64,000 bases of DNA from an uncultured Propionibacteriales bacterium (GTDB taxonomy: Bacteria; Actinomycetota; Actinomycetes; Propionibacteriales; Nocardioidaceae): assembly GCA_965653225.1 (NCBI GenBank), contig CBFGZI010000003.1, forward strand, positions 2,831-66,830, read 5' to 3'. The notes beneath the pieces were generated by a model. It had not been told where the DNA came from, did not search any database, and was given only the letters and a program-made list of their open reading frames with translations. This document shows positions 8,372 to 56,655 of this stretch, piece after piece (positions within the stretch are counted from its first letter, which is position 1; each line of letters begins with the position of its first letter). The position numbers were made by a program, and so were the translations under genes.

Positions 8372-8454
8372 CGGGCTTGCCCCTCTCGTCTCTGGTCACG
8401 CTGTCGTGTTCGTGTCACGGCCACGCTGGCACACACCCTGAGTAGGCTCACCCC

Positions 8455-9177: not shown

Positions 9178-9199
9178 GCACGTACGCCGGGCTCCTCCC

Positions 9200-10959: not shown

Positions 10960-11005
10960 TGGTGCTCCAAGGATCAGTGATGGTCGGTTACCTGCTGATC
11001 CTGCA

Positions 11006-11025
11006 ACTTAAAGTTAACTTCAAGT
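11006..11025. promoter_or_regulatory. 20-bp near-perfect palindrome in an AT-rich stretch upstream of the SDR/QueA-like operon (candidate operator)
   Basis: acttaaagttaacttcaagt: 18 of 20 positions are self-complementary around a central GTTAAC. On the operon strand it lies between a TTGACT (-35-like) and a CAGGAT (-10-like) separated by about 19 nt. Confidence 0.35.
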
Positions 11026-11182
11026 CAACGTCTAAGCATGAGCGCGCGCCCGCAAGACCCGGGCACATGGCTGGCGGTCACTTCCCAGGGCGCATATCCC
11101 TCGGGAAGCGCCCATCGGACCCGGTTACATGGCGCGTGGTCGCGCCTGCCCGGCGCCGCCGCCGAAGCGCCGGCAACACCCG

Positions 11183-40332: not shown

Positions 40333-41574
40333 TCAGATCAGGTCGAGCATCTGTTGGGAGATGTCGGTGGTGATCTGCTGTGTTTGGTCGCGGTGGTCGG
40401 TGAGCTCGCGGCCGTGTTTGGTGTGGAACCGGAACCGTCCGGCCTCGGCTCGGATGCGGAGGCGTCCGGAGTGCACGTTGCGGTGGTGGCGGGGGCACAG
40501 CGACACCATCTGGTCCAGGTCGGTGGGGCCGCCGTCGACCCAGTGGGTGAGGTGGTGCAGCTGCACCAGCCGGCTGCGGCAGCCCGGCACCCGGCAGCGG
40601 CCCCGGTCGCGCACCCGGGCACCGCGCCGCTGGGCGGCGGAGGCGGTGCGGGCGGTCCGGCCCAGCTCGATCGGCGACCCGTCGGGGGCGATCACCACCC
40701 GGGCGACCTGGGCGTCGCAGGCCAGCCGACGCACCAGGGAGGTGGGGACCGGGCCGAAGCCGTCCAGCTGCGCCGGTGCCGACCCCAGCCGGCCGACGAG
40801 GCTGTCCCAGGACAGCACCACGCTCAGGTGCGGCCGGATGCCGTTGTCCTGCGGCAGCCCGGAGTCCAGCACCGACCGGCACACGTCCCCGAGCGCGTCG
40901 GCGCGCCGCTGCCCGGCCGAGCGCCCGTCTCCGGGCTGCGGCTTGGACAGCGTGTCCAGCACCTGGGCGAGCATGGCGCCGGTCTCGGCGTCCAGCACGC
41001 CCTTGGCGACGTACTCGTCCCCGACCGGGGTGATCGTGAAATACCGCCGCTGCATCGCCTTGCGCTGCTGCTCGTCCACCCGGTCGGGGTCGACACTGTG
41101 CTGGAGTGTGCGAATCGCCTGCCGTAGGTCCCACGGGTCGTTGAGCCGGGCCAGCTCCAGCAGGGCCTCCTGCGCGGCGCGCACCGCGGCCAAACCGAGG
41201 TCGTCGACCGCACCTGCCAGCACCTCCACCTGCGCCAGCCCGATCTCGCCGGCGAGAAAGGCCCGGTGGACCTGCGGCAGGTCGGGCAGCCGCTGCCCGA
41301 CCAGCACCCGGCGGCGGGCCTCGCCGGCGCTCATGCGCAGCTGGTGTCGCAGCCATGAGGCCGCGGTGCGGGCGCCGACGTCCTTGTAGGCCTCGGTGGC
41401 CTCGAACACCGCGGTGGTCTCGGCGAACACGGCCTCCACCGGGTCACCCAGCCGGCGCAGGTCGCGCAGCCGATCTTCGAGCTGGGCGGGGGGCAGCAGC
41501 GCGAGGTTGTCCGCACCCACCGCGGCCACGGCTGCGACGAGACGGTCCATCGACGACTGCTCTGGCGAACACAT
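40333..41574 (-). CDS. HNH endonuclease with DUF222 N-terminal domain (REP13E12-type selfish gene family)
   Basis: N-terminus ...TAASWLRHQLRMSAGEARRRVLVGQRLPDLPQVHRAFLAGEIGLAQVEVLA (DUF222). C-terminus CRVPGCRSRLVQLHHLTHWVDGGPTDLDQMVSLCPRHHRNVH (HNH). Confidence 0.85.
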   Translation of the reverse strand: MCSPEQSSMDRLVAAVAAVGADNLALLPPAQLEDRLRDLRRLGDPVEAVFAETTAVFEATEAYKDVGARTAASWLRHQLRMSAGEARRRVLVGQRLPDLPQVHRAFLAGEIGLAQVEVLAGAVDDLGLAAVRAAQEALLELARLNDPWDLRQAIRTLQHSVDPDRVDEQQRKAMQRRYFTITPVGDEYVAKGVLDAETGAMLAQVLDTLSKPQPGDGRSAGQRRADALGDVCRSVLDSGLPQDNGIRPHLSVVLSWDSLVGRLGSAPAQLDGFGPVPTSLVRRLACDAQVARVVIAPDGSPIELGRTARTASAAQRRGARVRDRGRCRVPGCRSRLVQLHHLTHWVDGGPTDLDQMVSLCPRHHRNVHSGRLRIRAEAGRFRFHTKHGRELTDHRDQTQQITTDISQQMLDLI

Positions 41575-42361: not shown

Positions 42362-42721
42362 GTGCTCCCCGTCGACAGCAGGATCGACCAGTACGAAGAG
42401 GCTCGAGACCTGCTGTACGAGACGATGCAGGGACTGCCGCTGCCCGGGTTCGCCGGCCCAGACACCCGGCACCTGGTGGTGACCGTCCTGGTGCGACCGG
42501 GCCTGACGATTCTCGGCCGCAACGAGTCGCAGTGGCTCCGTGCCTGGCGCTACAGCAACCACCTCAGGGGAGCCTTTGACGGCGACATCGTGCTCGTGAC
42601 CGAACACGGCTGGGTGCACTGGCCGTCCGACTGGGGCGGCCATGAGCCACGGATGCAGCCCGCTGACCATCCGCCGGGACAGGCCGCCGACACAGTTCCC
42701 TCCCAGTACGGGCTCGCCTAG
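42362..42721 (+). CDS. Hypothetical protein
   Basis: GC3-rich ORF. Only 13 nt from the divergent start at 42348, so the true start may be ATG 42425. The 3' end overlaps the convergent helicase stop by 4 nt. Confidence 0.4.
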   Translation: MLPVDSRIDQYEEARDLLYETMQGLPLPGFAGPDTRHLVVTVLVRPGLTILGRNESQWLRAWRYSNHLRGAFDGDIVLVTEHGWVHWPSDWGGHEPRMQPADHPPGQAADTVPSQYGLA

Positions 42722-44377
42722 AGACCCAGCCGCTTCAGCACCTCAGGCCCGCCGACGGCACCGACGTACGCCGGGTCGCCGCACACCACCAGCTGGTCGC
42801 GTGCCCGCGAAAGTCCGACGTACAGCCGTTCCCTGGACCGCTCCTTCGGCTCCGACTCGTTGAGCGCGAGGACGACCGCTGGGCGTTCGAGACCCTTGAA
42901 CCCGAGCACGTGCCCGTAGAACACCTGCTCCTCGTCCCAGAAGGACTCCCAGTAGACGTCCTGGCCCTCCTCCTGTCGGGCCGCCTGCTCCGGGTGCTTG
43001 CTGCGAGCCGCCAGCAGAGCGATGTCTCCCGGCCGCCACCCTTCGTCGATCAGCGCGTCCACCTGGTCATCGGCGACGTCGAGGGCCTCGTCGGCGCCGC
43101 ACTCGACGAAACGAACGGCAGGACCGTCGACATCCACCAACCGCATGCGCATCGGCGCCAGCGGCGAGAAGGTGTCGGCGATCTGCCTGGTGTTACGCAG
43201 GTTCTGGTCGAGCACCAGCGGTACGAGAGCGATGGGCGGCCCACCGAAGCGGGCGAAGATCCGCTGGCCCTCGTCGGTGAATACGTACACCCCTCCGGCA
43301 TCGCCATCGCGCAGCGCCGCCAGCAGCACCGACCACCACGCGTCGGCGAAGTCCTGCGCCTCGTCGACCACGACCGCGTCGAACCGCTTCCCCGGCGGGA
43401 GCTCAGCCGCCATCCCCACCATCTGCGCGGGAAGCCGATGCTCCCAGAAGTCGCTGTCGTCGTCGGACTCCATCTCGGCTCCCCACTGCTCGCCGAGACC
43501 GTGGAACGTGCCGACGTACGCCGGGCGCTGCCTCCACGGCAGCAGCACCGCACGCTTCTGCATAAAGCGTGCGAGGCCTCGCGAGTAGCACATGAGCGCG
43601 ACGCGTTGGCCCTCGTGGCTCAACCGAACGCGCCTGCTCGAGCGCGAGCCACGTTTTGCCGCTGCCGGCGCCACCACGGATCTCGACGCGCTTCAGCATC
43701 CGCGCGGCGTCGAGCAGGATCGCCTGCTGTTGGGTCAGCCGGTCGATTCGCGCCTCATGCTCGGTGGCCGCCGCGACCAGGTCGGCCTGCGGGTGGGTCC
43801 GGCCATGCAGGATCTCGCGCAGGTCGGCGATGTCGGCCTTGCTCGCGCGCGGCTTGGCGTTCTGCTGCCGGTCGAGCATGTCCCGCAGCTGTGCAGCGAG
43901 TCCCGGCAGGTCGTGCCGTCCCGCGATCGCCCACCGCGGACACGCGGGAGTGGCAAAGCTGTCGTCGACGTCGGTGAACGGCAGAACGACTGCGTGCGCC
44001 CAGCGGACGCGACGCCGGTGCCAGCGCTCGTCGTTGTCGGCGTACTTACGCGCCGCATACATCCCGTTGCGCGCCTGACCCACCGGGTCGATCACCCGGC
44101 GGCCGTTGTTCCACGGCTGCGTCCACTTTCCGTCCGGCTCACAGCGAACGACGCTGCCCTTGACCTCGAGGACGACGAAGCCGTGGCCGGCAAGCCCGAC
44201 CAGGAAGTCGAGCTCGTAGTCCTGCCTGCGGTCGGTGAGCCTCAGGTTGGGAACAAGGAGGTCGTCCTCGTCGAGCTGGCCGCGCAGGCCCTCCCACACG
44301 ACACGCTCGCTGTCGGTGGTGAAGACCGGCGAATCTGTCGACACCATGGACTTCTCTCTCCCCGCTTGCTCGTACAT
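42718..44377 (-). pseudogene. NERD nuclease-related domain fused to an SF1 (UvrD-like) helicase, interrupted by a +1 frameshift just after the Walker A motif (near 43627)
   Basis: ORF 43403..44377 gives the NERD motif (DYELDFLVGLAGHGFVVLEVKG) and GGAGSGKTWLALEQAR. The sequence then continues in the frame of ORF 42718..43677 (RLSHEGQRVALMCYSRGLA...VVVDEAQDF...LDQNLRNTRQI...LYVGLSRARDQLVV). Total length is 3n+1. Confidence 0.75.
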
Positions 44378-44384
44378 CTCCTGG

Positions 44385-45359
44385 TCAATCCTCGCGGGCT
44401 CGGTACGCGTGCCAGATCTCCGGGCGCAGCCTTCCCTTGTCGGGTACGGCGAAGCCCTCCTCCCGCGCCCACGCGCGAACCTCAGCGGTAGTCGGTTCCA
44501 CCGGTGCCGGTGGTCCGGCGGCAGGCAGACCTGACACCACCGCGGCGGCCGGAGCCTCCTGCCGCACCTCCGCCAGCGCAGCGCCGAGGAACCGGTAGGT
44601 CCACTCCTGTGCCAGGGCGCGGGTCTCGCAGAACATGATCGGCACCGTCGGGAACCGCACCTGGCACTCCGCGAGTCCCTCGGCCACCACAGAAGGTCGA
44701 ACCCGGCTCAGCCTGAAGACCTCGGAGTAGCGCGCCTCGACCACGACCGCCGCACGTCCGACAGCGGCCAGGTCGGCCAGCACGTAGCGCAACTTGCCGG
44801 CGGTCAGCGTGGATACCAGGTCCTGCAGGCTCTTGCGCTCGACCGCGGCGACGATGTCACCGTCGTGCTCCACGCCGTAGTCACCGGCGGGCAGACCGCG
44901 TCGGCTCGTAGTCGCCTGCTGGTCGGTGAACTTCCAGGCGTAACGCTCGTGGGAGTCCACGATGATAGGCAGGTCGGTGATCCCGGACGCCCGTGCGGTC
45001 GGCACGACGACGTTCGGGCGAGCCTGCTTCGCCGTACGCGCGCTCTGCCAGAAGATCGCCTGACGGCCTCCGCGAATGCGCGTGAAAACGATCTGCGACC
45101 TGTTCTCACGACCTCGGTCGAGTACGAGGTCGATCGCGGCCCCGCGTTGCACGCACGAACGGACCCGCACCCGCTCGACGACCTCGGCCTGCGCGGGCCA
45201 CTCGTCCGCAGGGTGGCAGTAGACCTTGCTCAGGCGCGGCCAGGTGTCACGCGCCTTGAGGACGACCCCCTCGGACCCGAGCGGCAGCCTGATCAGGTAC
45301 GGCAGCGACGAGTCCGGGTCCGGGTTGCGCGCGATCAGGAAGTCGTCGTACACGGCCAT
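44385..45359 (-). CDS. ERCC4 (XPF/Mus81-type) nuclease domain protein with an unrecognised N-terminal domain and an Lsr2-like C-terminal DNA-binding tail
   Basis: LPAGDYGVEHDGDIVAAVERKSLQDL matches the ERCC4 GDx(n)ERKx3D signature. The C-terminus TTAEVRAWAREEGFAVPDKGRLRPEIWHAYRA resembles the Lsr2 C-domain (..[29 protein letters not shown]). It starts 14 nt after the recD stop. Confidence 0.75.
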   Translation of the reverse strand: MAVYDDFLIARNPDPDSSLPYLIRLPLGSEGVVLKARDTWPRLSKVYCHPADEWPAQAEVVERVRVRSCVQRGAAIDLVLDRGRENRSQIVFTRIRGGRQAIFWQSARTAKQARPNVVVPTARASGITDLPIIVDSHERYAWKFTDQQATTSRRGLPAGDYGVEHDGDIVAAVERKSLQDLVSTLTAGKLRYVLADLAAVGRAAVVVEARYSEVFRLSRVRPSVVAEGLAECQVRFPTVPIMFCETRALAQEWTYRFLGAALAEVRQEAPAAAVVSGLPAAGPPAPVEPTTAEVRAWAREEGFAVPDKGRLRPEIWHAYRARED

Positions 45360-45373
45360 CAGTCTGCAGCAGC

Positions 45374-47245
45374 TCAGGCCCTTCCGCGCAGCCCACTCGC
45401 CCGGACGATCGGCCGGCGCACTGCGGCATCCAGCGCGTCCCGAGTACCGATGACCCGGACGTGCTCCTTGGCGCGCGTGACCGCGGTGTAGAGCAGCTCG
45501 CGCGTCAGTAGCGGTGACTCGGCCGGCGGCAGCACGACCGTCACGCGGTCGAACTGGCTTCCCTGGCTTCGGTGCACCGACATCGCATGCACCGTCGTCA
45601 CGTCCGAGAGCCGGCTGGTCGGCAGCGTCGTGACGACACCGTCGCGACGGAACGCGGCCCGCGGATGCCCGCCGTCGTCGACGACGACGCCGCTGTCGCC
45701 GTTGAACAGCCGCAGCTGGTAGTCGTTAGACGTGACCAGCAGCGGTCGCCCGACGTACCAGAGCCCTTCGCGTCCGTAGCCCTCGATGGCCTCACCGAGC
45801 CACTCCTCCACCAGCGCGCCCCACTGCGCGACCCCGTGCGGCCCCTCGCGGTGCCCGCACAGCAGGCGGTGCCGCTCCAGCGCGGCGAGTGCACCAGCTG
45901 CGTCGCCGTTTCGCGCTTTCTTGGTGAGCTCGGTGCCTGCCTTCACCACGTCGGTGCGGACGGAGTCGAGCTCGGTCGTCGTCGCCGGGTCGTCCTCGAC
46001 GAACTCGATGCACGTGTAGTCCTTCGCGACCACGCCCGCCACGACGTCGGGGTCGCCGCTGCGGATCGCCTCGGCGAGCTCCTGGATCTCCTCCGAGAAC
46101 CGGTACACGTGCGAGAGCCGCACGACCCCGGCCGCCAGCGCGCGCTCACGCTCGTGGTCGGGAAGCCCGGCGAGGTCTTGCGCCGCAAGGTCCCCGACAC
46201 CCTTCGTCTCCTCGAGTACCGGTGCGACCGGCCGCTCGACCAGGTCGCCGAGGACGGCGCCGACCTCCACCGAGGCAAGCTGGTCAGGGTCGCCGACCAG
46301 GATCAAACGGCTTGTCGGCCGCAGCGCCTCAGCCAGCCGCGCCATCATCGTCAGCGACACCATCGAAGCCTCGTCGACGACGACCACGTTGTACGGCAGC
46401 CGGTTGTCGCGGTCGTGCCAGAACCTGGTGCGCGCACCGGGCTTGTAACCCAGCAGCCGATGCAGTGTCGACGCCTTCAGCTCTCCGAGCCGGTCGCGGT
46501 CCTCGGAGCTCAGACTGTCTGCGGCGGCGGTGGCGGCCTCCTGCAGGCGGGCAGCCGCCTTCCCGGTCGGCGCCGCCAGCGCGATCCGCAGACGACCGCC
46601 CTCGAGGTCCTGCAGGACGGCCAGGATCTTGGCGACCGTTGTGGTCTTCCCGGTACCGGGTCCACCCGCCAGGATGCTCAGCCGCCGGTGCGCCGCGACC
46701 ACCGCGGCGAGTCGCTGTCGGTCGGCTCCGTCGTCGGGGAAGAGCCGCGCGACGGCCTGCGCCAGCGCGGCCGCGTCCACGGCCTCCCCCGACCGCGACG
46801 TCGCCGAGTCCACGTAACCGGCGATCATCTGCTGCTGCCGCCAGTAACGGTCGAGATAGAGCAGCCCGTCCGCCCACCGCAGCGGCCGGTCCTCCGGCCC
46901 GTCGGCACCGACCGCGGTCAGCCGGCTCGCCTCCACCGCCGAGACCCAGGCGTCCGCCTCGGGCCAGGGCAGCGCCGCGACATCTTCCGCGGAGACGCCG
47001 TCCACCGCGGTCGTCTCCGCCGCGGCCGCGAGGTCCACGCACACCGACCCCTGCCGCACGGCGCGTACGACCAGCGCCGCCGCGAGCAGGACCCGCTCGT
47101 CGCTCTCGCCGCCGAGTCGCTCCAGTCGCTGCGCCACGTGTACGTCAGCGGCGCCGAGTACGCCGGCGTGGTTGAACTCCGCGAGCAGTCCCTCGACGCG
47201 GCGTACCTGCTGCGCGTCGAGCATGTCGGGCACCGTCACGGTCAT
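45374..47245 (-). CDS. recD: Exodeoxyribonuclease V subunit alpha
   Basis: ILAGGPGTGKTTTVAKIL (Walker A), VVVDEASMV (Walker B), AMSVHRSQGSQFD, LLYTAVTRAKEHV. 4-nt overlap with recB. Confidence 0.9.
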   Translation of the reverse strand: MTVTVPDMLDAQQVRRVEGLLAEFNHAGVLGAADVHVAQRLERLGGESDERVLLAAALVVRAVRQGSVCVDLAAAAETTAVDGVSAEDVAALPWPEADAWVSAVEASRLTAVGADGPEDRPLRWADGLLYLDRYWRQQQMIAGYVDSATSRSGEAVDAAALAQAVARLFPDDGADRQRLAAVVAAHRRLSILAGGPGTGKTTTVAKILAVLQDLEGGRLRIALAAPTGKAAARLQEAATAAADSLSSEDRDRLGELKASTLHRLLGYKPGARTRFWHDRDNRLPYNVVVVDEASMVSLTMMARLAEALRPTSRLILVGDPDQLASVEVGAVLGDLVERPVAPVLEETKGVGDLAAQDLAGLPDHERERALAAGVVRLSHVYRFSEEIQELAEAIRSGDPDVVAGVVAKDYTCIEFVEDDPATTTELDSVRTDVVKAGTELTKKARNGDAAGALAALERHRLLCGHREGPHGVAQWGALVEEWLGEAIEGYGREGLWYVGRPLLVTSNDYQLRLFNGDSGVVVDDGGHPRAAFRRDGVVTTLPTSRLSDVTTVHAMSVHRSQGSQFDRVTVVLPPAESPLLTRELLYTAVTRAKEHVRVIGTRDALDAAVRRPIVRASGLRGRA

Positions 47246-50200
47246 GCGACGTCACCCCCGTCGAGCAAGTCGGACAGGTCCTGCGCCAAGGCGGGTGGCG
47301 GCGCCCACGAGAACACCCCGCACGGGACCCCGCCGACGACCGGCGTCTCCTCGCCGCACATGCCACGCAGGAACAGGTAGAGCACGCCGCCGAGGTGTAC
47401 GGCCGGGTCGTACGCCGGCTGCCGCCACCGCAGGAAGCGGTGCAGCGCGACCGAGTACAGCAGCGCCTGCAACGGGTAGTGCGCGTGCCGCATCGCGCGA
47501 GCCAGCGCCTCGGGCTGGTAGTGCTGCGCGGTCAGCGGGCCGTCTCCGCCGAGCCAGTTGGTCTTGTAGTCGACGACGAGGTAGCGCACCTCGCCGTCGT
47601 CCTTCCGCACGCGCAGCACTGCGTCGATGCTCCCGGTGAGGAAGCCTCGCATCCGCTGCGACGCGAGCACCGGCGCCGCCAGGTCGTCGGCGTAAGCGGC
47701 GAGGGGGTCGTCGTCCTGTAGATGGCGCCGCAGCAGGGTGGCGATCCGACCCACCGCCGCCCCGCCGGTCGGCACATCGCCTCCCGCAAGTGGCAGCTCG
47801 AACTCGAGCTCGTCGAGCCGGTCACCGGTCGCGATGTCGGCGAGCCGTCGTCCGTCCGCCAGCGGCCCCAGTGGTGTTCGCAGCGATGGCAGCAGCGCGT
47901 CGGCGAGCACGTCCGCGGGCACGTTGACGAAGCGTTCCGCACCCGCACCGGCGCACGCCTCCACCAGCGCCGACCGCAGGTCGGTCGCGGCGAAGTCGAC
48001 CTCCTCCAGCACGCGGTGCACGAGCGTGCCGAACGCCGCACCGCTGGGCAGGTCGACCATCGGCGACACCGGCCAGGTCTCGTCGGGCTCGGCCTCCTCA
48101 GAGGTCGGCTCGCCCTCCGGCCCGACCGGCAGCTCGTCGATGACACCGGGGGTCTCCGGCTCACTGGTGACGCGTGCTGCGGTTTCCTCATGAAGGGCCG
48201 CGGTCAGCCTGGAGTACGAGGTGCGCGCCCATACCAGGTCGAGTGCACGGTCGAACGCCCGCACGGACAGCTCGGGGGTTTGCGTCCTCTCGACGGGAAG
48301 CACCTCAGAGGCGCCGCGGTAGACGGGCTCCACGCTGACGCCACCGCCGGACGTGGCCGCGATGGCGGTCAGCCGCTCCTTGGCTTCGTAGTCGGTGGGG
48401 ATCGCCACCCTGTCCGGCACCACCCCGCCGTTCTTGCGCTCGCCGAACAGCAGCCGGTGCCACGGGGCGCAAGGGGTGTTGTTGGTCGGCGCCCAGTACG
48501 TCACGACCTGGCACTTTGCGCGAGTGAGCGCGACGTACGCGAGCCGCAGCGACTCCCCCGCGTCCTCCGCCAGGTGGGCCTCCTTGTGCTCGTCGTACGC
48601 GGGGCCTCCGCGTGAGCCCACGTCGAGCACCCGCGCCCCGGTGTCGTCGTGCAGCTTGAGCGGATCGGGGTCGGTGGGCACCCAGCGGCTCCACAGGTAC
48701 GGCGCGTAGACGACCGGGAACTGCAGCCCCTTGCTGCGGTGCACGGTGAGCACCTGCACGGCCTTGGCGTCGGACTCCAGCCGCCGGCTGCGCTCTTCGT
48801 CCGGGTCCTCTCGGGACTCGGCGATGCGGTGCTGCAGCCACTCGACCAGCGAGGCCACGCCGCCGTGCACCTGCGTGGCCTGGGCGTGCAGTGTCTGGCC
48901 GATGTGGCGAAGGTCGGTGAGGTCGCGTTCGCCGTCATCGTGGGCAAGCACGCGTGCGGTGAGGCCGTAGGTCGCGGTGACGCGCTCCAGCAGAGCGGCG
49001 ACACCACTTCCGGTCAGGACGCCGGCCCACTCGCGCAGGCGTGCGCCCAGCTCGTCGAGCTGTTCGTCGCTGGCGGTGGCGAGCTGCTCGGCAGTCCAGC
49101 CGACGAAGTCCGTCAGCGCGGCGGCACGGGCGAGGCCGGGACGCTGCGGCTGCTCGAGCGCGGTCAGCAGTGTCAGCCAGTCACGCGCGGCTGCGGACCG
49201 GAACACGCTGATCGTGCCGAGGAGCACGACGGGCACACCGGCGACGTCGAGCGCGTCGCGGACTGTGAGGCCGTCCTCGTTCCGCTGCACGAGCACGGCG
49301 ATGTCGGCGGGCTCGAGAGACCGCTTGTCGCCGTTATCGGTGATCCGGGCGTCGGAGCACAGCAGCTTGACGATGTCGGCGGCGACGTCGTCGGCGATGA
49401 ACGGACGCACGTCGGGGACCGTCAGAGGTTTGTCCGGTTCCTCGACGCCGAGTGCCTTGCGGGGCACGGCGCGGATGCGCAGGGGTGCGTCGACGGGTGC
49501 CCCGGAGAGGGTGGGTTCGGGGTGTCCGGCGTTGACGTCGTGCACGAGGATGCGCGGGTCGCCGAGCGCGACGTCGCCGATGACGTGTCTCAGCGCGTCC
49601 ACCAGCGGCCGGTCGCTGCGCCAGTTGGTGCCCAGCGTCGCCTTCGTGGCCGCAGCCTCCGTGGCGAGCAGGTAGGTGACGACGTCGGCGCCGCGGAAGG
49701 CGTAGATGGCCTGCTTCGGGTCGCCGATGAGCACGAGAGTGCGGTGGCCGTGGAATGCGCGCTCGAGGATCTCCCACTGCACCGGGTCGGTGTCCTGGAA
49801 CTCATCGACGAGCACGATCTTGTAGCGGCTGCGCACCCGCGCGCATGCGTCCTCGCCGGTCTCGGGGTCGGTCAGCGCGTTGCGCAGGTGGACCAGCAGG
49901 TCGTCGTAGTCCATGACCCGCATGGCCCGCTTGCGCTGAGCGACGGTGTCGCGCGCGCGTTCGGCAAAGCGGTACCGGACCGCCGCCTCCGGGTAGGTGG
50001 CGCGGTCGGCGTCGGCGGGCTCTAGGCGTGCGGCGGGGTCGCCGACCGCCTCCTTGGCGACGCTCGTCGCGATGCCGAACCTCAGGGGCGTCTCGGTGGG
50101 GTCTGGGCTGCCGTAGTCGGCGACGTACAGGTCGGTGGCGACGTCGGTGACCAGGTCGCCGGTCCACTCCGCGAACGTCACGTCGTGGTCGACGTCGGCC

Positions 50201-50619
50201 GCGATGCCCATGCCGGCGAGCATCTGGTGGCAGAAACCATGTGTGGTGGCGATGGTGGCGGCGTCGAAGTTGGCGGCGGCGGTCGCCAGGCGCTGTCGAC
50301 GTACGTCGACCTCTGCGTCGCTCCCCTGCGCCAGGTGGCGGATGAGGTCATCCATGGAACTGCGGGCGGCGTCGATGTCGTCGAGGCTTGTCGTCGCCTC
50401 GACGAGCCGCTCGCGGACCCGTTCGCGCAGCTCGGCCGTGGCCGCGCGGCCGAAGGTCACGAGCATGAGCTCGTCGATGCGTGCGACCCCTTCGGCGAGG
50501 TAACGCACCGCGAGACCGGCGATCGTGTAGGTCTTCCCGGTGCCGGCGCTGGCCTCGAGAACGGTCGTGCCTTCGGGCAGCGGCCCGCACAGGTCGAAGA
50601 TGGGAGGCGTAGGCGTCAT
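47242..50619 (-). CDS. recB: Exodeoxyribonuclease V subunit beta (UvrD-type helicase + PD-(D/E)XK nuclease)
   Basis: VLEASAGTGKTYTIAGL, VLVDEFQDTDPVQW, TVHRSKGLQFPVVY, C-terminal GFLTGSIDAVL...LVVDYKTNWLG nuclease motif. ATG 50619 overlaps the recC stop (ATGA). Confidence 0.9.
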   Translation of the reverse strand: MTPTPPIFDLCGPLPEGTTVLEASAGTGKTYTIAGLAVRYLAEGVARIDELMLVTFGRAATAELRERVRERLVEATTSLDDIDAARSSMDDLIRHLAQGSDAEVDVRRQRLATAAANFDAATIATTHGFCHQMLAGMGIAADVDHDVTFAEWTGDLVTDVATDLYVADYGSPDPTETPLRFGIATSVAKEAVGDPAARLEPADADRATYPEAAVRYRFAERARDTVAQRKRAMRVMDYDDLLVHLRNALTDPETGEDACARVRSRYKIVLVDEFQDTDPVQWEILERAFHGHRTLVLIGDPKQAIYAFRGADVVTYLLATEAAATKATLGTNWRSDRPLVDALRHVIGDVALGDPRILVHDVNAGHPEPTLSGAPVDAPLRIRAVPRKALGVEEPDKPLTVPDVRPFIADDVAADIVKLLCSDARITDNGDKRSLEPADIAVLVQRNEDGLTVRDALDVAGVPVVLLGTISVFRSAAARDWLTLLTALEQPQRPGLARAAALTDFVGWTAEQLATASDEQLDELGARLREWAGVLTGSGVAALLERVTATYGLTARVLAHDDGERDLTDLRHIGQTLHAQATQVHGGVASLVEWLQHRIAESREDPDEERSRRLESDAKAVQVLTVHRSKGLQFPVVYAPYLWSRWVPTDPDPLKLHDDTGARVLDVGSRGGPAYDEHKEAHLAEDAGESLRLAYVALTRAKCQVVTYWAPTNNTPCAPWHRLLFGERKNGGVVPDRVAIPTDYEAKERLTAIAATSGGGVSVEPVYRGASEVLPVERTQTPELSVRAFDRALDLVWARTSYSRLTAALHEETAARVTSEPETPGVIDELPVGPEGEPTSEEAEPDETWPVSPMVDLPSGAAFGTLVHRVLEEVDFAATDLRSALVEACAGAGAERFVNVPADVLADALLPSLRTPLGPLADGRRLADIATGDRLDELEFELPLAGGDVPTGGAAVGRIATLLRRHLQDDDPLAAYADDLAAPVLASQRMRGFLTGSIDAVLRVRKDDGEVRYLVVDYKTNWLGGDGPLTAQHYQPEALARAMRHAHYPLQALLYSVALHRFLRWRQPAYDPAVHLGGVLYLFLRGMCGEETPVVGGVPCGVFSWAPPPALAQDLSDLLDGGDVA

Positions 50620-53600
50620 CCTTGGCGTGTCTCCTCGGCCGCCAGCAGCGGTGACCACACGCGCCGCGCGAGCTGCCCGAACAGGTGAGGCTCCTCGGGG
50701 TAGGTGCCGTCAGCCTCGGGCGGGTGGTCGAGTAGCGCCTGGATCTGTACGTCACCCCACACCAGCCGGTTCTGCGCGTCGCCGAACTCGCCGAACTCCT
50801 GGGGACCCGATCCCTTCCGCCGCCACGCGCTCCTGGCGTACGTCACCGCCGTGTGCACGGACTTGCCGTCGCCCCGCTTCTCGGCGTACCGGCACGAGGT
50901 CTCCGGCGGCAGCGGCAGGGGGAACGTGAGCCCGGTGCGGTGGACCTTCACCAGCGTGTCCAGGTGTGCGAGCGCGTCCTGCGGGCTGACGTCGCGAAGG
51001 AACGAGCCGAGCACGTTGCCGCCGCGCCAGTCGGGGTTGCGTCCGACGGTGGCGGCACGCCACGCGCTCTCGGAGGCGTGCGCCTGTAGCGCCAGGAGAT
51101 AGACCCAGGCGCGCAGACGGTGCTTTGGCGAGAGCTTGGAGTAGACGACGCGCACGATGCAGTCGCCGTGGATGCTCGGCACCGTGCCGGCCAGCGTCAC
51201 ACCCGACGGGAGGGTGACGGACACGTCGGCCTGCGTCGGGTCGATGCTGCGCAGCCGCGCACTGGTGTCGACAAGCTCGGCCACCTGCTCGGCGATGGGG
51301 GTGACGATGTCGTCGCCGAGACGTCCCGGCGGCAGCTGTCCGCGCAGCCACTCGGCCCGGACGGCGCGGTCGTCCGGGATGCCGGCCACACCGGCACGCA
51401 GGAGTCGGTCGCCCACTGACCACCTCTCGAGCCCGTCGGGGTCGACCGGGATAGCGTCGCTGGGCTCGTCCTCCTCGTCGGTGGTGCTCAGCTCGAGACG
51501 CTGGCGGAGGAAGCCCCTGGCCGGGTGCTCGAGGAAACGGACGAGCGCGTCGAGCTCGACGACCTGCGGCGGGTCCGGGTCTGGGACCGGCGCGGGGAGG
51601 AACGGCGGTCGGGGTCGCCGTTCGCGGAGCAGCGCCCGGCTGCCCTCATACGCGGACCGGTCGAAGCTGAACGGCTCCTCGCGCACCATGTCGCCGGCGA
51701 CGAAGTTGCGGGCGTCGAAGGGCTGCAGCGGATGGCGGGTGAGGACACGGTCGCGAGCACGTCCTGTGGGGACCTGAGCCGTGCGGTCGAGGACGTCGAG
51801 CAGCTCGCCGAGGGGTACGGCCGGCGGGCGCTCGGCGCCGGTGCGCTCGTCGGCGCCGGAGTAGACGCAGACGAGCCGCTCCTTGGCCGCGAGGATCGCG
51901 TCCAGGAACAGCTGACGGTCCTCCGCGCGGGCGTCACGCTCGCCCACGTGCGGGCGGCGGGCGAGGATGTCGTCGCCGTCGACCCGGGTGGTGCGCGGGA
52001 AGACGCCGTCGTCGAGGCCGAGCAGGCACACAACCCGATGCGGCACCGAGCGCATCGGGACCATCGTGCACATGGTCAGCGCACCGGTGCGGAAGTTGGC
52101 CCTTGTCGGGCGTCCCTTCAGGCGCTCGCCGAGCAGTGCGCGTACGTCGGAGAGGCGGAGCGCGGTCCCCTCGGTGTGGCCTTCGGCGGCCGTCAAGGTG
52201 TCGGCGAGCTGCCAACGCGCCTGGGAGACCTGCCACGAGTCCCGCGGGCTGACCGCCACGAGGCTCTCCACCGCATCGCCGAGGGCGGCGAGCCACTTGT
52301 CCAGAGTCTGCTCGCGGTTGAGGGCCTCGACGGCTGCTGCGAGGCGGTCAAGGAGCTCGGCCAGCCGGCCGGCGAGGTCGATCTCGTTGCTGTCCACGTC
52401 GTCCAGCGGGAGCGTGCCGTCGACGCTGCGCAGGTCGTCCTCGGCCATCGTCACGCCGACGAGAATGCGGTCGAGACCCGACTGCCAGGTGTTCTGGTGG
52501 AACTCACCGAGGCCGAAGCTGCTGCGCGCCTCGGCGTCGAGCCCCCAGCGCACGCCGGATCGGCGTACCCAGTCGCCGACCCGCTCCAGCGAGTCGTCGT
52601 CGAGGTGGAACCTCCGGCGTACTGGCGGCATCGCGGCGAGATCGAGCACCTCGGAGGCGGTCAGCCGCGAGTCGGCGAGCTCGAGCAGACGTGCCGCAAC
52701 CGCGAGGACGGGGTTGGTCTGGCGCAGCGACCTGTCGGCGAGCCGGACGCTCAGGCGATGGCCCGGGTGGGCGTTCTCGCTCCATTCACCACTGGCATCG
52801 TCTAGGTCCGATGCCGACAGGCCGAACGCGGCCGCAACGAGAGGCGCGTACGACTCGATGTCGGGGCACATCACGATGAGGTCGCGCGGCTCGAGCGTCG
52901 GATCGTCGGCGAGCAGCCCGAGCAGCACCTCGCGGAGCACCTCGACCTGGCGCTGCCGACCGTGGCAGGCGTGGACCTGCACCGACGTGTCGTGGTCCCC
53001 CAGCAGATGCTCACCGGTCGGTGCCCGGTCGGCGTGGATGTCGCGTTGCAGTGCTGCCAGCAGCGTCTCGCCGTCTGGCTCGACCGGGATGTGCTCGTCG
53101 CTATCCACGCGCGTATTGGCCTGCAGACGCAGCTGCATCTCCCGAGCGTCACGCCCGAGCGAGCGGACCAGCGGATGCTCAGGAACGTCGGCCGTCGGGT
53201 CGTCGCGGCGGGTCGGGACCCGCAGCTGCGTCTCTGCGGTCGCCTCCGCGACGTGCTCCCAGAGTCCCGAGGACGGGTACGGCAGCCACACATGCATTTC
53301 CCGCTGGGCCGCCAGCGCGTCGAGCACCTGGATCTCGGCCGTGCTCAGCCGTGTCGGTCCGAAGATCGACAGTCGCTCCGGCAGCTCCACCAGCGCAGCC
53401 TGGTCCCGCAGCTGGGCCACGGCTTCCTCTGCCCGTTCCGCGGGACTCGCCACGCCGATGCGGTCGCGTAGCCGCCGCCACAGCTCCGCCTGCCACCGGT
53501 GGTCGGCGTCGAGCGGGTCGCCGTACCCGTCGCTGTCGCGCCCGTCCAGCCAGTCGCGAACCATCGTGGGCCGCTGCGCGCCGTACGAGGCGAACAGGCC

Positions 53601-54029
53601 GGCCACCTTCTGCGCGACCGCCATGCGCCGCCCCTGGTCGACCGCGCCGTCGATCAGGCCCAGATGCCGGCCGAGCGTGCGACACCACGCCTCCGAGGCG
53701 CACCCGTCGATGACCTCCAGCAGCGGCCACGGCAGCCGGTGCTGGGCCCACGGGTCGTCGTCTGCGTCCATACCCGAGCCGGCCGCGACCGCCTCGCGCA
53801 CCAGCCGCCCGGGCGACGGGAACACGACGTTGGCGCACACTCCGTCGCCGCGGCCCTCTTGTGTGCCCAGCACTGACGAGAGCGACTGCGCGATCCACCG
53901 CTCCACGCCCCTTGACGGCACCGCCACCACATCAGGCGTGAACGGGTCACCCGGCGCCGCGCGCAGCACGCCCGCAAGGCCCGCAACCAAGGCGTCAGCC
54001 CGCTCGGCTCGGTGGATCCTCAGCGGCAC
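50616..54029 (-). CDS. recC: Exodeoxyribonuclease V subunit gamma
   Basis: About 1137 aa. N-terminus LRIHRAERADALVAGLAGVL...VAVPSRGVERWIAQSLS is typical of RecC. Start set to the in-frame GTG (codon 43 of ORF 50616..54155). Confidence 0.9.
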   Translation of the reverse strand: MPLRIHRAERADALVAGLAGVLRAAPGDPFTPDVVAVPSRGVERWIAQSLSSVLGTQEGRGDGVCANVVFPSPGRLVREAVAAGSGMDADDDPWAQHRLPWPLLEVIDGCASEAWCRTLGRHLGLIDGAVDQGRRMAVAQKVAGLFASYGAQRPTMVRDWLDGRDSDGYGDPLDADHRWQAELWRRLRDRIGVASPAERAEEAVAQLRDQAALVELPERLSIFGPTRLSTAEIQVLDALAAQREMHVWLPYPSSGLWEHVAEATAETQLRVPTRRDDPTADVPEHPLVRSLGRDAREMQLRLQANTRVDSDEHIPVEPDGETLLAALQRDIHADRAPTGEHLLGDHDTSVQVHACHGRQRQVEVLREVLLGLLADDPTLEPRDLIVMCPDIESYAPLVAAAFGLSASDLDDASGEWSENAHPGHRLSVRLADRSLRQTNPVLAVAARLLELADSRLTASEVLDLAAMPPVRRRFHLDDDSLERVGDWVRRSGVRWGLDAEARSSFGLGEFHQNTWQSGLDRILVGVTMAEDDLRSVDGTLPLDDVDSNEIDLAGRLAELLDRLAAAVEALNREQTLDKWLAALGDAVESLVAVSPRDSWQVSQARWQLADTLTAAEGHTEGTALRLSDVRALLGERLKGRPTRANFRTGALTMCTMVPMRSVPHRVVCLLGLDDGVFPRTTRVDGDDILARRPHVGERDARAEDRQLFLDAILAAKERLVCVYSGADERTGAERPPAVPLGELLDVLDRTAQVPTGRARDRVLTRHPLQPFDARNFVAGDMVREEPFSFDRSAYEGSRALLRERRPRPPFLPAPVPDPDPPQVVELDALVRFLEHPARGFLRQRLELSTTDEEDEPSDAIPVDPDGLERWSVGDRLLRAGVAGIPDDRAVRAEWLRGQLPPGRLGDDIVTPIAEQVAELVDTSARLRSIDPTQADVSVTLPSGVTLAGTVPSIHGDCIVRVVYSKLSPKHRLRAWVYLLALQAHASESAWRAATVGRNPDWRGGNVLGSFLRDVSPQDALAHLDTLVKVHRTGLTFPLPLPPETSCRYAEKRGDGKSVHTAVTYARSAWRRKGSGPQEFGEFGDAQNRLVWGDVQIQALLDHPPEADGTYPEEPHLFGQLARRVWSPLLAAEETRQG

Positions 54030-54280
54030 GTCTCTACCCCCGTGTCTGCCACCTAGCGACCATAACGAACAGGTCGGACTGTCTACAGGTGGTCCACAGG
54101 TACAGCAGGCTCCCTTGCAGGCGGTCAGGTGCCCTCTGGTCCGGCGTATCCACATCGGGAGCGGTGAACAACAATCCTTCCCTCGGGTGTGTCACTCCGC
54201 TCCGGACGCCCGGAAAGCGCCTCGTCGTCCGCGCCGCACCGCGGACATGCGACAGCCGGCATCACACCTCCTTCAGGAGC

Positions 54281-54778
54281 TCATCCACGCGGATGATCCG
54301 GCGGAAAAATCCGGACCCCCCCAGACCCGATGACGCACGAGGTCGCCTGCGACCAGATCTCGTTGAGACGGGAGGCTGCTGGTTCTCGCACCTCGACTCC
54401 AGAGGACTGCAAGTAGTTCCACGGGACTTGATCGACCAGTTCCAGCAGCATATTGGTGTCTACTCGCTCTTCGACGGGTATGCACTGGTGCCACCGAACG
54501 TCGATGTACGACGTAGTGCGGTCGCCACCGTCCCAGTGCATGTCCTTGAAGGGCACACTCGTTGCCTCCCCGCGGGCAACCAGACCGCGTCCCTTAGTCC
54601 CCTGGCGCAACAGAAAGACGATGTCGCCGGGTGCTACACCCCTGACTCTGTTACCGACGCTCCACGTACCCTCGATGACTCCGCCTTGCGCCGTCTGCTC
54701 CACGTAGGCGTTCCAGTCATCGCTGAGAGCCGGCCACTTATCGGGGTTCCAGGTGAGCAGGATCGTTCGGGCCGTCAT
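54281..54778 (-). CDS. Hypothetical protein, possibly PUA/EVE-like fold
   Basis: 165 aa. ILLTWNPDKW...GTWSVGNRVRGVAPGDIVFLLRQGTKGRGLVARGEATS... resembles EVE/PUA-like beta-barrel modules by eye only. 4-nt overlap with the upstream XRE gene. Confidence 0.45.
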   Translation of the reverse strand: MTARTILLTWNPDKWPALSDDWNAYVEQTAQGGVIEGTWSVGNRVRGVAPGDIVFLLRQGTKGRGLVARGEATSVPFKDMHWDGGDRTTSYIDVRWHQCIPVEERVDTNMLLELVDQVPWNYLQSSGVEVREPAASRLNEIWSQATSCVIGSGGVRIFPPDHPRG

Positions 54779-55287
54779 CGGTCACCAGTTTCGCGGCGTT
54801 CGTCGATGAGCTGCTCCATAACTCGACGCTGTGCGGCATTGATGACGTCGAGACGCTGCTCTTGGGGCAGCTGACCCACCAGGTCGGCGATCTGCTGAGC
54901 CACGCGCCTCGGGTCGGACGGCGGCGGGCCGGCCGCGGCGGGGACCGCGAGAGCCGCCGCGGATTCTTCGTACTGCGGGTTCGTGTACCAGCTCTCCCGG
55001 GCCCGCGCCGCTCGCGGCCGCCGGGGTGAGCCCAGGTCCGACGAGGCGAGCGCCTCCTCGTACGGGATCGATGCCGACAGCTCGCTGGGCGACAGCTCCA
55101 ACGCCTCGGCAAGCGCGGCGAGCGCCTTGTGCGACGGCAGCCGGTAGCCGGTCTCCAGCTGCGACACATACGGATACGACAAGCCACTGGCCTCGACGAG
55201 GTCGCGCCGGCTCAGGCCGAGCTCCTCGCGGCGCGCCTTGATCCGGCGGCCGAAGGCCTCGGCTCCCGGCTCCTTCCGTGCGGCCAT
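54775..55287 (-). CDS. XRE-family helix-turn-helix transcriptional regulator with a C-terminal extension
   Basis: FGRRIKARREELGLSRRDLVEASGLSYPYVSQLETGYRLPSHKALAALAEALELS is the canonical Cro/C1 HTH. Confidence 0.85.
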   Translation of the reverse strand: MAARKEPGAEAFGRRIKARREELGLSRRDLVEASGLSYPYVSQLETGYRLPSHKALAALAEALELSPSELSASIPYEEALASSDLGSPRRPRAARARESWYTNPQYEESAAALAVPAAAGPPPSDPRRVAQQIADLVGQLPQEQRLDVINAAQRRVMEQLIDERRETGDR

Positions 55288-55291
55288 CGCC

Positions 55292-55340
55292 TATGCTCCT
55301 TGCATAACTCTGCTCTGTGCATTATGCTGCTCTCAGCATA
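55292..55340. promoter_or_regulatory. Two related inverted repeats (candidate operators) in the 78-bp divergent XRE / vWA intergenic region
   Basis: TATGC-tcctt-GCATA (55292-55306) and TATGCTG-ctct-CAGCATA (55323-55340). This is the most AT-rich stretch locally, and GGGGAGGG precedes the vWA ATG. Confidence 0.5.
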
Positions 55341-55365
55341 AGAGTACGACATAGGGGAGGGAACC

Positions 55366-56634
55366 ATGAAGATCGACGCGCAGATGGGTGTGGACCTGGT
55401 TGCGGTCGAGGGCGAGGAGGAGCTGTCGGCTCTGATCGCGCTCACGGCGCCGGAGAGCCCGCAGCAGGACGCCGAGCGCACGCCCAGCACGCTCATCGTC
55501 GTACTCGACCGGAGCGGCTCGATGGCCGGTGACCGGCTGGAGGGGGCAAAGCGGGCCCTGCTCTCCCTGGTCGACCGCCTCTCCCCCACCGACCGGTTCG
55601 GGCTGGTCACTTTCGACGACCACGTCCGCGTCGAGGTCCCGGCCGCCACCATGACCGACAAGCCGGCCGTCAAGGCCCGGATCGCGCACATCCACTCCGG
55701 CGGAACCACCAACCTCTCCGCCGGCTACCTCCGCGGCCTGCAGGAGGCGCGCCGAGTCGCGGCCGACGAGGGCGCCACCGTGCTGCTCATCAGCGACGGC
55801 CATGCCAACGCCGGCGTCACCGAGCCCGACCAGCTCGCCAGCGTCTCCGTCACGTACGCCCAGAAGCACGTGACCACCTCCACGCTCGGCTACGGCCTCG
55901 GGTACGACGAGCGCCTCCTCACCGCGATCACGAAGGGCGGTCGGGGCAACGAGCACTTCGCCGAGGACCCCGACACGGCGGCAGCGCTGATCGCCGGCGA
56001 GGTCACCGGCCTGCTCAGCCAGACCATCCAGGCGGCCTCGCTGACCATCCAGATGTCGCCGCACGTCCGCGGCGTACGGCTCGCCAACGACCTACAGGTC
56101 GCCCCGGTCGTCAACGGTCTGCAGGTCGAGCTCGGCAGTCTCTGGGCCGGCGAGGAGCGCAAGCTCGTACTCGTCTTCGACGTCCCGCAGCTCCCCGCGC
56201 TCGGTCTTACCGAGATCGCTTCGCTGGAGCTCCGCTACGTCGACACGGTCGAGCTCAAGGAGGAGACGGTGACGATCCCGCTGCACGTCAACGTCGTCCC
56301 CGGCGACCAGGCGGCCGGCCGCACGGTCAACCCGGTCGTCGCCACCGAGCTGGCGTTCCAGGAGGCCCAGCGCGCCAAGCGCGAGGCCTCGCGGCGCCTG
56401 TACGAGGGCGACGTGGCCGGCGCTGCCATGCAGCTCGGCATGGCGGGTTCGGCGATCGCCGACGCCATGGGATGGGCTCCGGTCGAGTCCAGGGCCGAGC
56501 TGTCCGACGAAGCCGCGGAGATCGACCAGATGATGCACGAGGCCCGGTACGGCGAGATGACGCGGGCGTCCAAGCGCCTCTCCTCCGACGCCGCGCGCAA
56601 GTCGCGCCAGCGCGGCCGCCGCGACATCTTCTGA
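55366..56634 (+). CDS. von Willebrand factor type A (vWA) domain protein with a large C-terminal extension
   Basis: MIDAS motif VVLDRSGSMAGDRL, plus GGTTNLSAG and LLISDGHANAG. About 200 aa beta-rich region and a helical tail follow. Confidence 0.85.
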   Translation: MKIDAQMGVDLVAVEGEEELSALIALTAPESPQQDAERTPSTLIVVLDRSGSMAGDRLEGAKRALLSLVDRLSPTDRFGLVTFDDHVRVEVPAATMTDKPAVKARIAHIHSGGTTNLSAGYLRGLQEARRVAADEGATVLLISDGHANAGVTEPDQLASVSVTYAQKHVTTSTLGYGLGYDERLLTAITKGGRGNEHFAEDPDTAAALIAGEVTGLLSQTIQAASLTIQMSPHVRGVRLANDLQVAPVVNGLQVELGSLWAGEERKLVLVFDVPQLPALGLTEIASLELRYVDTVELKEETVTIPLHVNVVPGDQAAGRTVNPVVATELAFQEAQRAKREASRRLYEGDVAGAAMQLGMAGSAIADAMGWAPVESRAELSDEAAEIDQMMHEARYGEMTRASKRLSSDAARKSRQRGRRDIF

Positions 56635-56655
56635 GCGACCAGCACTGTCGGTGCC

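Follow-up and report, generated by a model that had tools for sequence, protein, structure and literature searches.

In this study, we analysed a window of 64,000 nucleotides (nt) from an uncultured bacterium of the Nocardioidaceae (GenBank assembly GCA_965653225.1, contig CBFGZI010000003.1, positions 2,831 to 66,830 of the forward strand) and focused on one gene, for which an initial annotation had proposed an ERCC4 nuclease fused to an Lsr2-like tail. The gene is an intact open reading frame (ORF) encoding a protein of 324 amino acids (aa), from an ATG at position 45359 to a TGA at 44387-44385. The limits originally given for it coincide exactly with this ORF, which lies on the minus strand, a point that had been left unstated. 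Its GC content (~0.69-0.70) equals that of the surrounding DNA. The protein is full length when set against more than 120 homologues of 317-341 aa and has three parts, a beta-barrel at its N-terminus, an ERCC4 nuclease domain and a DNA-binding tail of the Lsr2 type (Table 1). We propose that it is a stand-alone XPF/Mus81-type structure-specific endonuclease that is tethered to DNA and acts in repair, recombination or replicon maintenance, an explanation to which we give about an even chance.

The nuclease domain was recognized by Pfam PF02732, which matched aa 134-257 over its entire 140-position profile with 48.6 bits against a cut-off of 24 (E 9.8e-13). When the AlphaFold model of the whole protein (mean predicted local distance difference test, pLDDT, 84) was compared with the PDB by Foldseek, the best match was the Hef nuclease domain 1J22 (E 4.6e-8; template modelling score, TM, 0.79 normalised to the target), followed by archaeal XPF, human XPF and MUS81. 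The ERCC4 fold is thus held in common with Pyrococcus furiosus Hef (1J22-1J25), Aeropyrum pernix XPF (2BGW/2BHN) and the eukaryotic XPF and MUS81 proteins (Foldseek E 4.6e-8 to 1e-4). The likeness extends to the GDXnERKX3D motif and the acidic pair upstream of it; both the signature G159-D160-Y161 ... E174-R175-K176-x3-D180 and the pair D135/E138 align with Pyrococcus Hef. In an alignment of 26 divergent relatives, down to 35% identity, D135, E138, G159, D160, E174, R175 and K176 were invariant, and D180 was conserved in at least 90% of the relatives. Because this complete set of acidic and lysine catalytic residues is invariant, the nuclease core looks catalytically competent. By predicted fold and sequence signature, the protein is a member of the XPF/Mus81/Hef (ERCC4) nuclease superfamily, and the catalytic motif that the initial annotation had read by eye is borne out.

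ERCC4 paralogues without activity are common in eukaryotes, LlaI.R1 has been described as a bacterial DNA-binding module resembling ERCC4, and many members of the present family carry the NCBI label 'Lsr2 family protein'. The gene might accordingly be thought to encode a nucleoid-associated or regulatory protein without catalytic activity, in which a dead ERCC4 fold serves for DNA binding alone, as in ERCC1, EME1 and FAAP24. However, residues D135, E138, D160, E174, R175 and K176 are invariant across phyla, which is not expected of a dead domain, and a purely architectural protein is for this reason very improbable.

As in Hef, XPF and MUS81, a DNA-binding module lies C-terminal to the nuclease domain, but its nature is different. 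The protein lacks the (HhH)2 domain, the helicase-like N-terminal domain and the PCNA motif of these archaeal and eukaryotic enzymes; it has instead an Lsr2-type tail and a beta-barrel N-domain, and its host is bacterial (Actinomycetota). No HhH match was obtained with Pfam at E 10 in the region C-terminal to ERCC4 where the (HhH)2 domain is expected. The model places there a long helix (aa 247-276) and then coil, a region poorly conserved among the relatives, followed by the Lsr2-type domain. Pfam PF23359 (Lsr2_DNA-bd) matched aa 289-321 with 34.3 bits against a cut-off of 26.9 (E 1.5e-8), and Lsr2-like families of PHROGs also matched the tail. Single-sequence matches to the solved Lsr2 domains 6QKQ, 6QKP and 2KNG were weak when taken alone (E 0.2-0.4), and their register was the one originally aligned by eye. 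The model shows the two expected helices (aa 291-300 and 313-323, pLDDT ~88) around the loop. Profile searches and structure prediction, the checks proposed with the initial annotation, thus both agreed with its assignment of the tail.

The C-terminal ~35 aa of the target have the same helix-loop-helix with an [R/K]-G-R loop as Mycobacterium tuberculosis Lsr2 (Rv3597c; 2KNG, 6QKP, 6QKQ) and the phage Lsr2-like families phrog_1223 and phrog_6269. The loop reads K-G-R in the target instead of the R-G-R of Lsr2; it is R-G-R in most relatives and [R/K]-G-[R/K] overall, with G309 invariant and R310 conserved in at least 90%. A further difference is that the N-terminal dimerisation/oligomerisation domain of Lsr2 (PF11774) gave no match, the target having at its N-terminus an unrelated beta-barrel that precedes the ERCC4 domain. 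The protein is therefore not expected to form filaments or bridges or to act as a xenogeneic silencer. It is well known that the C-terminal domain of Lsr2 inserts into the minor groove of AT-rich DNA and that Lsr2 is a xenogeneic silencer in high-GC actinobacteria. Since the [R/K]-G-R loop is conserved, AT-biased targeting through the tail is plausible on sequence grounds. Scanning the target against PADLOC-DB 2.0 gave a match for the tail only (aa 276-321, E 2e-10), to the type II methyltransferase model PDLC03328, and no model for the nuclease or the N-domain. The methyltransferase has a like C-terminal tail and an unrelated catalytic domain, which points to the Lsr2 DNA-binding domain as a tether that has also been moved onto other DNA-modifying enzymes of Actinomycetota.

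The first ~125 aa had originally matched no recognizable family, and this was confirmed: no match was found in Pfam, NCBIfam, PHROGs, PADLOC or the PDB sequences (profile search, even at E 10). Yet no part of the protein is better conserved than the N-domain, whose alignment columns are on average 77% identical among close relatives. It is modelled as an Arg-rich barrel spanning aa 6-106 (pLDDT ~85-90). When it was modelled alone, the top PDB matches by Foldseek were two archaeal LigD 3'-phosphoesterase domains, 3P43 (TM 0.57, probability 1.00, E 0.01) and 3P4H (TM 0.56-0.58), both at probability 0.99-1.00 and E 0.01-0.1. The LigD domain, of which 3N9B is a further structure, was the sole structural match (TM 0.56-0.58 over ~121-126 columns); all other matches had a TM below 0.3, and a search against viral structures returned nothing. 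At the sequence level, alignment of the N-domain profile to four phosphoesterase sequences recovered from the PDB with hhalign gave only 15 columns, PDSSLPYLIRLPLGS against DASRLHYDFRLELDG, at 1.8% probability. We therefore keep the likeness at the level of fold and do not claim homology. In the best local pairing (LPYLIRLP/LHYDFRLE), the Arg is retained, whereas the metal-binding His and Asp of the phosphoesterase are replaced by Pro20 and Leu22. Family-wide, P41, G73, R82 and W104 are invariant and C48, C69 and R87 nearly so, which, judged from the alignment, do not form an active-site pattern; no His or Asp of the N-domain is invariant, and the His-His-Asp manganese site and the catalytic Arg/His/Tyr set of the phosphoesterase were not found. 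The N-domain may accordingly be a non-catalytic nucleic-acid-binding module, possibly for a DNA end or junction. A tblastn search with the phosphoesterase domains gave no match in the ~2 Mb of fetched loci, so there is no linkage to LigD. Separately, Pfam DUF7665 gave sub-threshold matches in two of 23 relatives (P0203 and one other; best E 8e-4, ~16.6 bits against a cut-off of 27). It may be a distant relative of the barrel domain, although a signal of this size is not interpretable.

A protein search for relatives returned more than 6,000 matches. The best 120 of these were 317-385 aa long (mostly 317-341) and 66-86% identical to the target, all with both Pfam domains, under the names 'ERCC4 domain-containing protein', 'Lsr2 family protein' or 'ERCC4 domain/Lsr2'. 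At least 546 stretches of species-representative genomes and 562 further stretches of metagenomes encode a relative. The taxa among the matches listed are Nocardioidaceae, Acidimicrobiales, Ilumatobacteraceae, Georgenia, Ornithinimicrobium, Intrasporangium, Propionibacteriaceae, Geodermatophilaceae, Pseudonocardiaceae and Mycobacteriales. No relative turned up among 50,697 phage records or the IMG/VR contigs, the only match being an unrelated ERCC4 gene of a Halorubrum virus; a phage origin was thus rejected.

When representatives at 50% identity were searched exhaustively (324 clusters below E 1e-30), two sister forms emerged. One consists of barrel and ERCC4 domain without a tail (~270-290 aa; e.g., P0196, P0213, P0372), with one example in an Acidimicrobiaceae genome; the other carries a winged helix-turn-helix tail (~350-430 aa; e.g., P0168, P0310) with sub-threshold DeoR/MarR-type matches and occurs not in Actinomycetota but in Bacillota, Deinococcota (Trueperaceae), Chloroflexota and Anaerolineae genomes. 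Both share the N-domain and the ERCC4 core with the target at 35-48% identity and with the same invariant residues, and both are encoded by equally solitary genes in unrelated contexts; they differ from it in the C-terminal DNA-binding module, which is swapped or missing. As domain comparison indicates, this putative module is interchangeable and lineage-appropriate, at the position that (HhH)2 holds in canonical XPF-family enzymes. The finding of the same core with a winged helix or with no tail argues that the tail is an exchangeable DNA tether and not the core of the function. As databases already annotate both domains, their combination is in itself no discovery. Three points appear to be new: that the N-domain resembles the phosphoesterase fold of LigD, that the tail is exchangeable, and that the gene is solitary rather than part of a RecBCD system.

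The initial annotation had the nuclease hand its substrates to a co-encoded RecBCD. In the window, the recC, recB and recD genes precede the target gene on the same strand. As read from the sequence, 14 nt separate the stop codon of recD from the target ATG; recB and recD overlap by 4 nt (47242-47245), the longest recC and recB ORFs by 43 nt (50616-50658), and a NERD + UvrD-like helicase gene starts 7 nt downstream of the target on the same strand. These overlaps and short gaps suggest, from reading-frame spacing, a single translationally coupled operon recC-recB-recD-target-(NERD helicase). At the locus of the closest relative (L088, 86% identity), the order recB-recD-target is preserved with a gap of 12 nt, and the NERD helicase is absent. 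By contrast, at the syntenic locus of an 80%-identical relative (L084), the 9.4 kb of recBCD are replaced by a 298-aa gene, a gene for a 621-aa SLFN-like/AAA_30 helicase and a MazG-like gene. That recBCD is kept in the one and replaced in the other indicates that the adjacency is a feature of one lineage's variable hot spot and not of the family. A survey of 160 loci (1.67 Mb of flanking sequence, 10-kb radius) found rec genes near a relative in only three or four, namely L024 (adjacent to recD), L003 (3.5 kb away, in the same arrangement as L096) and L008 (recC only), the chance expectation being ~0.7; more than 95% of the loci showed no recBCD linkage. Linkage to recBCD thus holds for the window, L088, L024, L003/L096 and, in part, L008, and was rejected as a trait of the family.

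These data bear on the possibility that the protein is the 3'-flap endonuclease of actinobacterial RecBCD-dependent single-strand annealing, analogous to Rad1-Rad10/XPF-ERCC1. The compact operons of the window and L088, the adjacency to recD in L024 and a frequency of nearby rec genes about four times that expected by chance are in its favour, as is the fold of the N-domain, which is that of a module binding DNA 3' ends. In eukaryotic single-strand annealing, an ERCC4-family flap nuclease removes the 3' tails. In mycobacteria, RecBCD is reported to be dedicated to single-strand annealing and required for this pathway only (review PMC4888836). Nevertheless, almost all loci are unlinked to rec genes, a relative as close as that of L084 has no recBCD at the same locus, and family members are found on small plasmids, so that we regard so specific a role as quite unlikely.

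Beyond recBCD, no partner gene was conserved across the 160 loci and eight further loci. When ORFs were called de novo in 66 loci and clustered, no neighbour family was shared by more than six of them, and neither Pfam and PADLOC scans of 150 neighbouring proteins from ~45 loci nor eight context look-ups revealed a common partner; a conserved operon partner was thus rejected. The immediate upstream genes of relatives include those for a mannosyltransferase, a ceramidase, a Tn3 transposase, a pyruvate phosphate dikinase, a permease and a cyclase. The 150 neighbours are mainly products of ordinary metabolic and transport genes, the commonest Pfam families among them (DUF222 and an ABC-2 transporter family) occurring three times at most. 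Only a handful matched PADLOC models, none of which was matched more than once, and defence genes are accordingly not enriched.

Table 1 Features of the target gene, its surroundings in the window and related loci
Feature	Sequence	Coordinates	Strand	Basis or remark
Whole gene; 324-aa protein with beta-barrel, ERCC4 nuclease domain and Lsr2-type tail	Window	44385-45359	minus	ORF list, translation
N-terminal domain, aa 1-112, eight-stranded Arg-rich beta-barrel	Window	45024-45359	minus	AlphaFold, Foldseek
Linker between barrel and nuclease, aa 113-128	Window	44976-45023	minus	Low confidence; pLDDT <50 for aa 112-122
ERCC4 (XPF/Mus81/Hef-type) nuclease domain, aa 134-257	Window	44589-44960	minus	Pfam PF02732, Foldseek, weak NCBIfam match to Hef nuclease
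Upstream acidic pair D135/E138	Window	44946-44957	minus	Read from sequence
Catalytic signature G159 to D180	Window	44820-44885	minus	Read from sequence, aligned to Hef motif
Long helix, then variable Pro/Ala-rich linker, aa 258-288	Window	44496-44588	minus	Model; at (HhH)2 position of canonical XPF-family proteins
Lsr2-type DNA-binding domain, aa 289-321	Window	44397-44495	minus	Pfam PF23359; two helices around K308-G309-R310
K308-G309-R310 loop	Window	44430-44438	minus	Within Lsr2-type tail
recCBD block	Window	45374-54155	minus	Pfam domains and sequence
recC	Window	50616-54155	minus	Upstream of target; Pfam domains
recB	Window	47242-50658	minus	Upstream of target; Pfam domains
recD	Window	45374-47245	minus	Directly upstream of target; Pfam domains
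NERD + UvrD-like helicase	Window	42718-44377	minus	Domain matches; frameshift between 43608 and 43622
DUF222 + HNH endonuclease gene (REP13E12-like family of actinobacteria)	Window	40333-41574	minus	Side observation
Orthologous variable hot spot	Window; L084	44385-57642; 1-10408		Flanks: VWA (82% identity) and HTH (70%); ERCC4-Lsr2 (80%) and DUF222-HNH (74%)
DUF222 + HNH gene near relative	L084	9167-10408		
DUF222 + HNH gene near relative	L087	133-1509		
DUF222 + HNH gene near relative	L008	~8147-9190		
DUF222 + HNH gene near relative	L015	~8621-9634		
DUF222 + HNH gene near relative	L058	~11274-12272		
Plasmid homologue	L082 (M. avium p2-JPH1)	7992-9807 (region)		56-61% identity (all three)
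Plasmid homologue	L083 (M. liflandii pMUM002)	7995-11099 (region)		
Plasmid homologue	L081 (21-kb M. lentiflavum plasmid)	8614-12284 (region)		

The genes next to the operon in the window deserve brief description. The two halves of the NERD + UvrD-like helicase lie in different frames, as seen by tblastn with an intact 552-aa homologue encoded ~2 kb downstream of the ERCC4-Lsr2 gene at another locus (L032). The frameshift falls just after the Walker A motif GGAGSGKT, so that the gene is either a pseudogene or affected by a sequencing error. Its halves match PADLOC models for NERD+UvrD (C3a187), GajB and a DRT-associated helicase. Beside recC, positions 54775-57642 encode a helix-turn-helix (HTH) regulator (XRE-type by homology to the L084 gene), a VWA-domain protein (422 aa) and an IrrE-like M78 peptidase-domain protein (328 aa), which together may form a module for stress response or defence. 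A search of the window for a canonical Lsr2 gene found none, the sole match being the tail of the target protein itself.

Full-length copies of the gene, 22 in number, are also found on plasmids of Mycobacterium, Rhodococcus, Streptomyces and Pseudonocardia. The mycobacterial ones include pMUM002 of M. liflandii and plasmids of M. ulcerans, M. pseudoshottsii and M. avium/intracellulare, as well as a 21-kb plasmid with 19 annotated features, where the homologue lies between a resolvase-type recombinase and ParA. In two different plasmids the homologue is convergent with the IS21 gene istB, and the plasmid NC_018022.1 of M. chubuense NBB4 has three matching places. In a UPGMA (unweighted pair group method with arithmetic mean) clustering of 80 homologues, the groups largely followed taxonomy with few odd placements, one of them being the window protein, which clusters with a Nocardioidaceae sequence (L001) next to one from the Acidimicrobiales (L002). 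Mean identity was 70% within Acidimicrobiia, 66% within Actinomycetes and 63% between the two classes. Taken together, these identities and the taxonomy-congruent clustering indicate strong long-term purifying selection and mainly vertical descent with some transfer. An enzyme of DNA metabolism would be more likely to behave in this way than a fast-evolving gene for defence.

The plasmid copies could also mean that the protein serves the mobile element itself, in competition between plasmids or integrative elements, in resolving the element's own replication or recombination intermediates, or as a toxin-like nuclease, with horizontal spread and repeated domestication. The completely variable chromosomal contexts, the Tn3 transposase or DUF222-HNH gene as immediate neighbour in several of them, and the placements that depart from taxonomy would fit such a role. 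On the other hand, conservation is high and mostly congruent with taxonomy, most neighbours are housekeeping genes, no copies were found in the phage records and viral contigs searched, and no cognate antitoxin or immunity gene is conserved alongside. We assign this explanation a small probability.

The initial annotation had gone further and proposed that the tail guides the nuclease to AT-rich, that is, foreign DNA in a host of ~70% GC and that RecBCD degrades the resulting ends, which would make the gene a single-gene innate-immunity nuclease. Several observations agree with this. The minor-groove loop is conserved in the actinobacterial subfamily, the core looks active, the gene is apparently co-transcribed with recBCD in the window, L088 and L024, and its lineage has defence-like neighbours, among them the helicase halves matching PADLOC models and the SLFN-like and MazG-like genes. 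In addition, copies on plasmids and mobile elements resemble the behaviour of many defence genes, the tail of a PADLOC methyltransferase model is of the same kind, and it is known that the Lsr2 of the host accumulates at zones of phage replication. However, the linkage to RecBCD is confined to the few loci described above, defence genes are not enriched in the neighbourhood, neither the nuclease nor the N-domain is represented by a PADLOC model, and the gene evolves slowly along taxonomic lines. ERCC4 nucleases recognise DNA structure, not base composition, and the host's own AT-rich islands would be at risk. Given that relatives with a winged helix or without a tail keep the same core, AT-rich reading cannot be the essence of the family's function. 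An anti-foreign-DNA role is thus possible but unsupported by the related genomes, and we consider the proposal unlikely, though the least so of the alternatives to a repair or recombination enzyme. A related version, which might be called xenogeneic restriction, is somewhat less probable still. In it, a single gene of Actinomycetota that joins an AT-tract reader of the Lsr2 type to an XPF-type nuclease would deal with AT-rich DNA entering the cell, or with intermediates of replication and recombination formed on it, by cleavage in place of silencing; the barrel of phosphoesterase-like fold would detect DNA ends or junctions, and the winged-helix tails would be the equivalent in other phyla.

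We therefore favour the explanation that the gene encodes a stand-alone, DNA-tethered structure-specific endonuclease of repair, recombination or replicon maintenance. The architecture, the intact catalytic residues, the modular tail, the solitary context, the large size of the family and its conservation all argue for it, and so do the lack of enrichment for defence genes among the neighbours, the absence of the gene from the phage collections and the only fold match of the N-domain, to an enzyme domain that binds DNA 3' ends. A general-purpose DNA tether standing in for (HhH)2 should be exchangeable, as the tail is between an Lsr2-type domain in Actinomycetota, a winged helix in other phyla and none. 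In the enzyme that we envisage, the (HhH)2 domain would have been replaced by an Lsr2-type tether on a flexible linker. The protein would dimerise through its ERCC4 domain, as its relatives do, and the two Lsr2 tails would hold the dimer on duplex DNA or the nucleoid with some bias to AT-rich tracts. The basic barrel might then engage a DNA end or a junction of single- and double-stranded DNA, and the nuclease would incise branched DNA such as 3' flaps, forks and nicked junctions. It would act alone, outside any multi-gene system, as an accessory factor of recombination and repair in the maintenance of chromosomes and plasmids. In the window, co-transcription with recBCD would fit the trimming of 3' flaps in RecBCD-dependent single-strand annealing, an arrangement specific to this lineage.

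Some of the evidence weighs against a repair or recombination enzyme. The hot spot of this lineage holds defence-like neighbours, the NERD-UvrD helicase in the window and the SLFN-like helicase with the MazG-like gene in L084. Among the neighbours, DUF222-HNH elements recur most often: they lie no more than 10 kb from the gene in 10 of 80 genome loci, and in several they adjoin it. This recurrence may reflect either a functional link or a common location in variable parts of the genome and, judged from gene neighbourhoods, points to the flexible genome. The plasmid copies adjoin IS21 elements, integrases, resolvase and ParA, which is a hallmark of the flexible genome rather than of core repair, and the family is not universal within Actinomycetota. 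The likeness of the barrel to the phosphoesterase is one of fold only, and dimerisation and substrate specificity are assumed from relatives. Finally, our literature search found no paper on the family or on the ERCC4-Lsr2 architecture, and the family is uncharacterised.

In summary, bacterial XPF/Mus81-family nucleases are essentially unstudied, and the present family, with thousands of members in Actinomycetota, some of them on plasmids of the Mycobacterium ulcerans, M. liflandii and M. avium groups, offers an intact catalytic core, an undescribed N-terminal domain and a DNA-binding tail that can be swapped from one lineage to another. A role in repair could allow it to close gaps in the double-strand-break repair of actinobacteria, for example as the flap nuclease for RecBCD-dependent single-strand annealing; if instead it is directed to AT-rich DNA, it would act in immunity as a nuclease guided by base composition, complementary to silencing by Lsr2. 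Under either reading, the Lsr2 DNA-binding domain would be a portable tether on enzymes and not a part of silencers alone.

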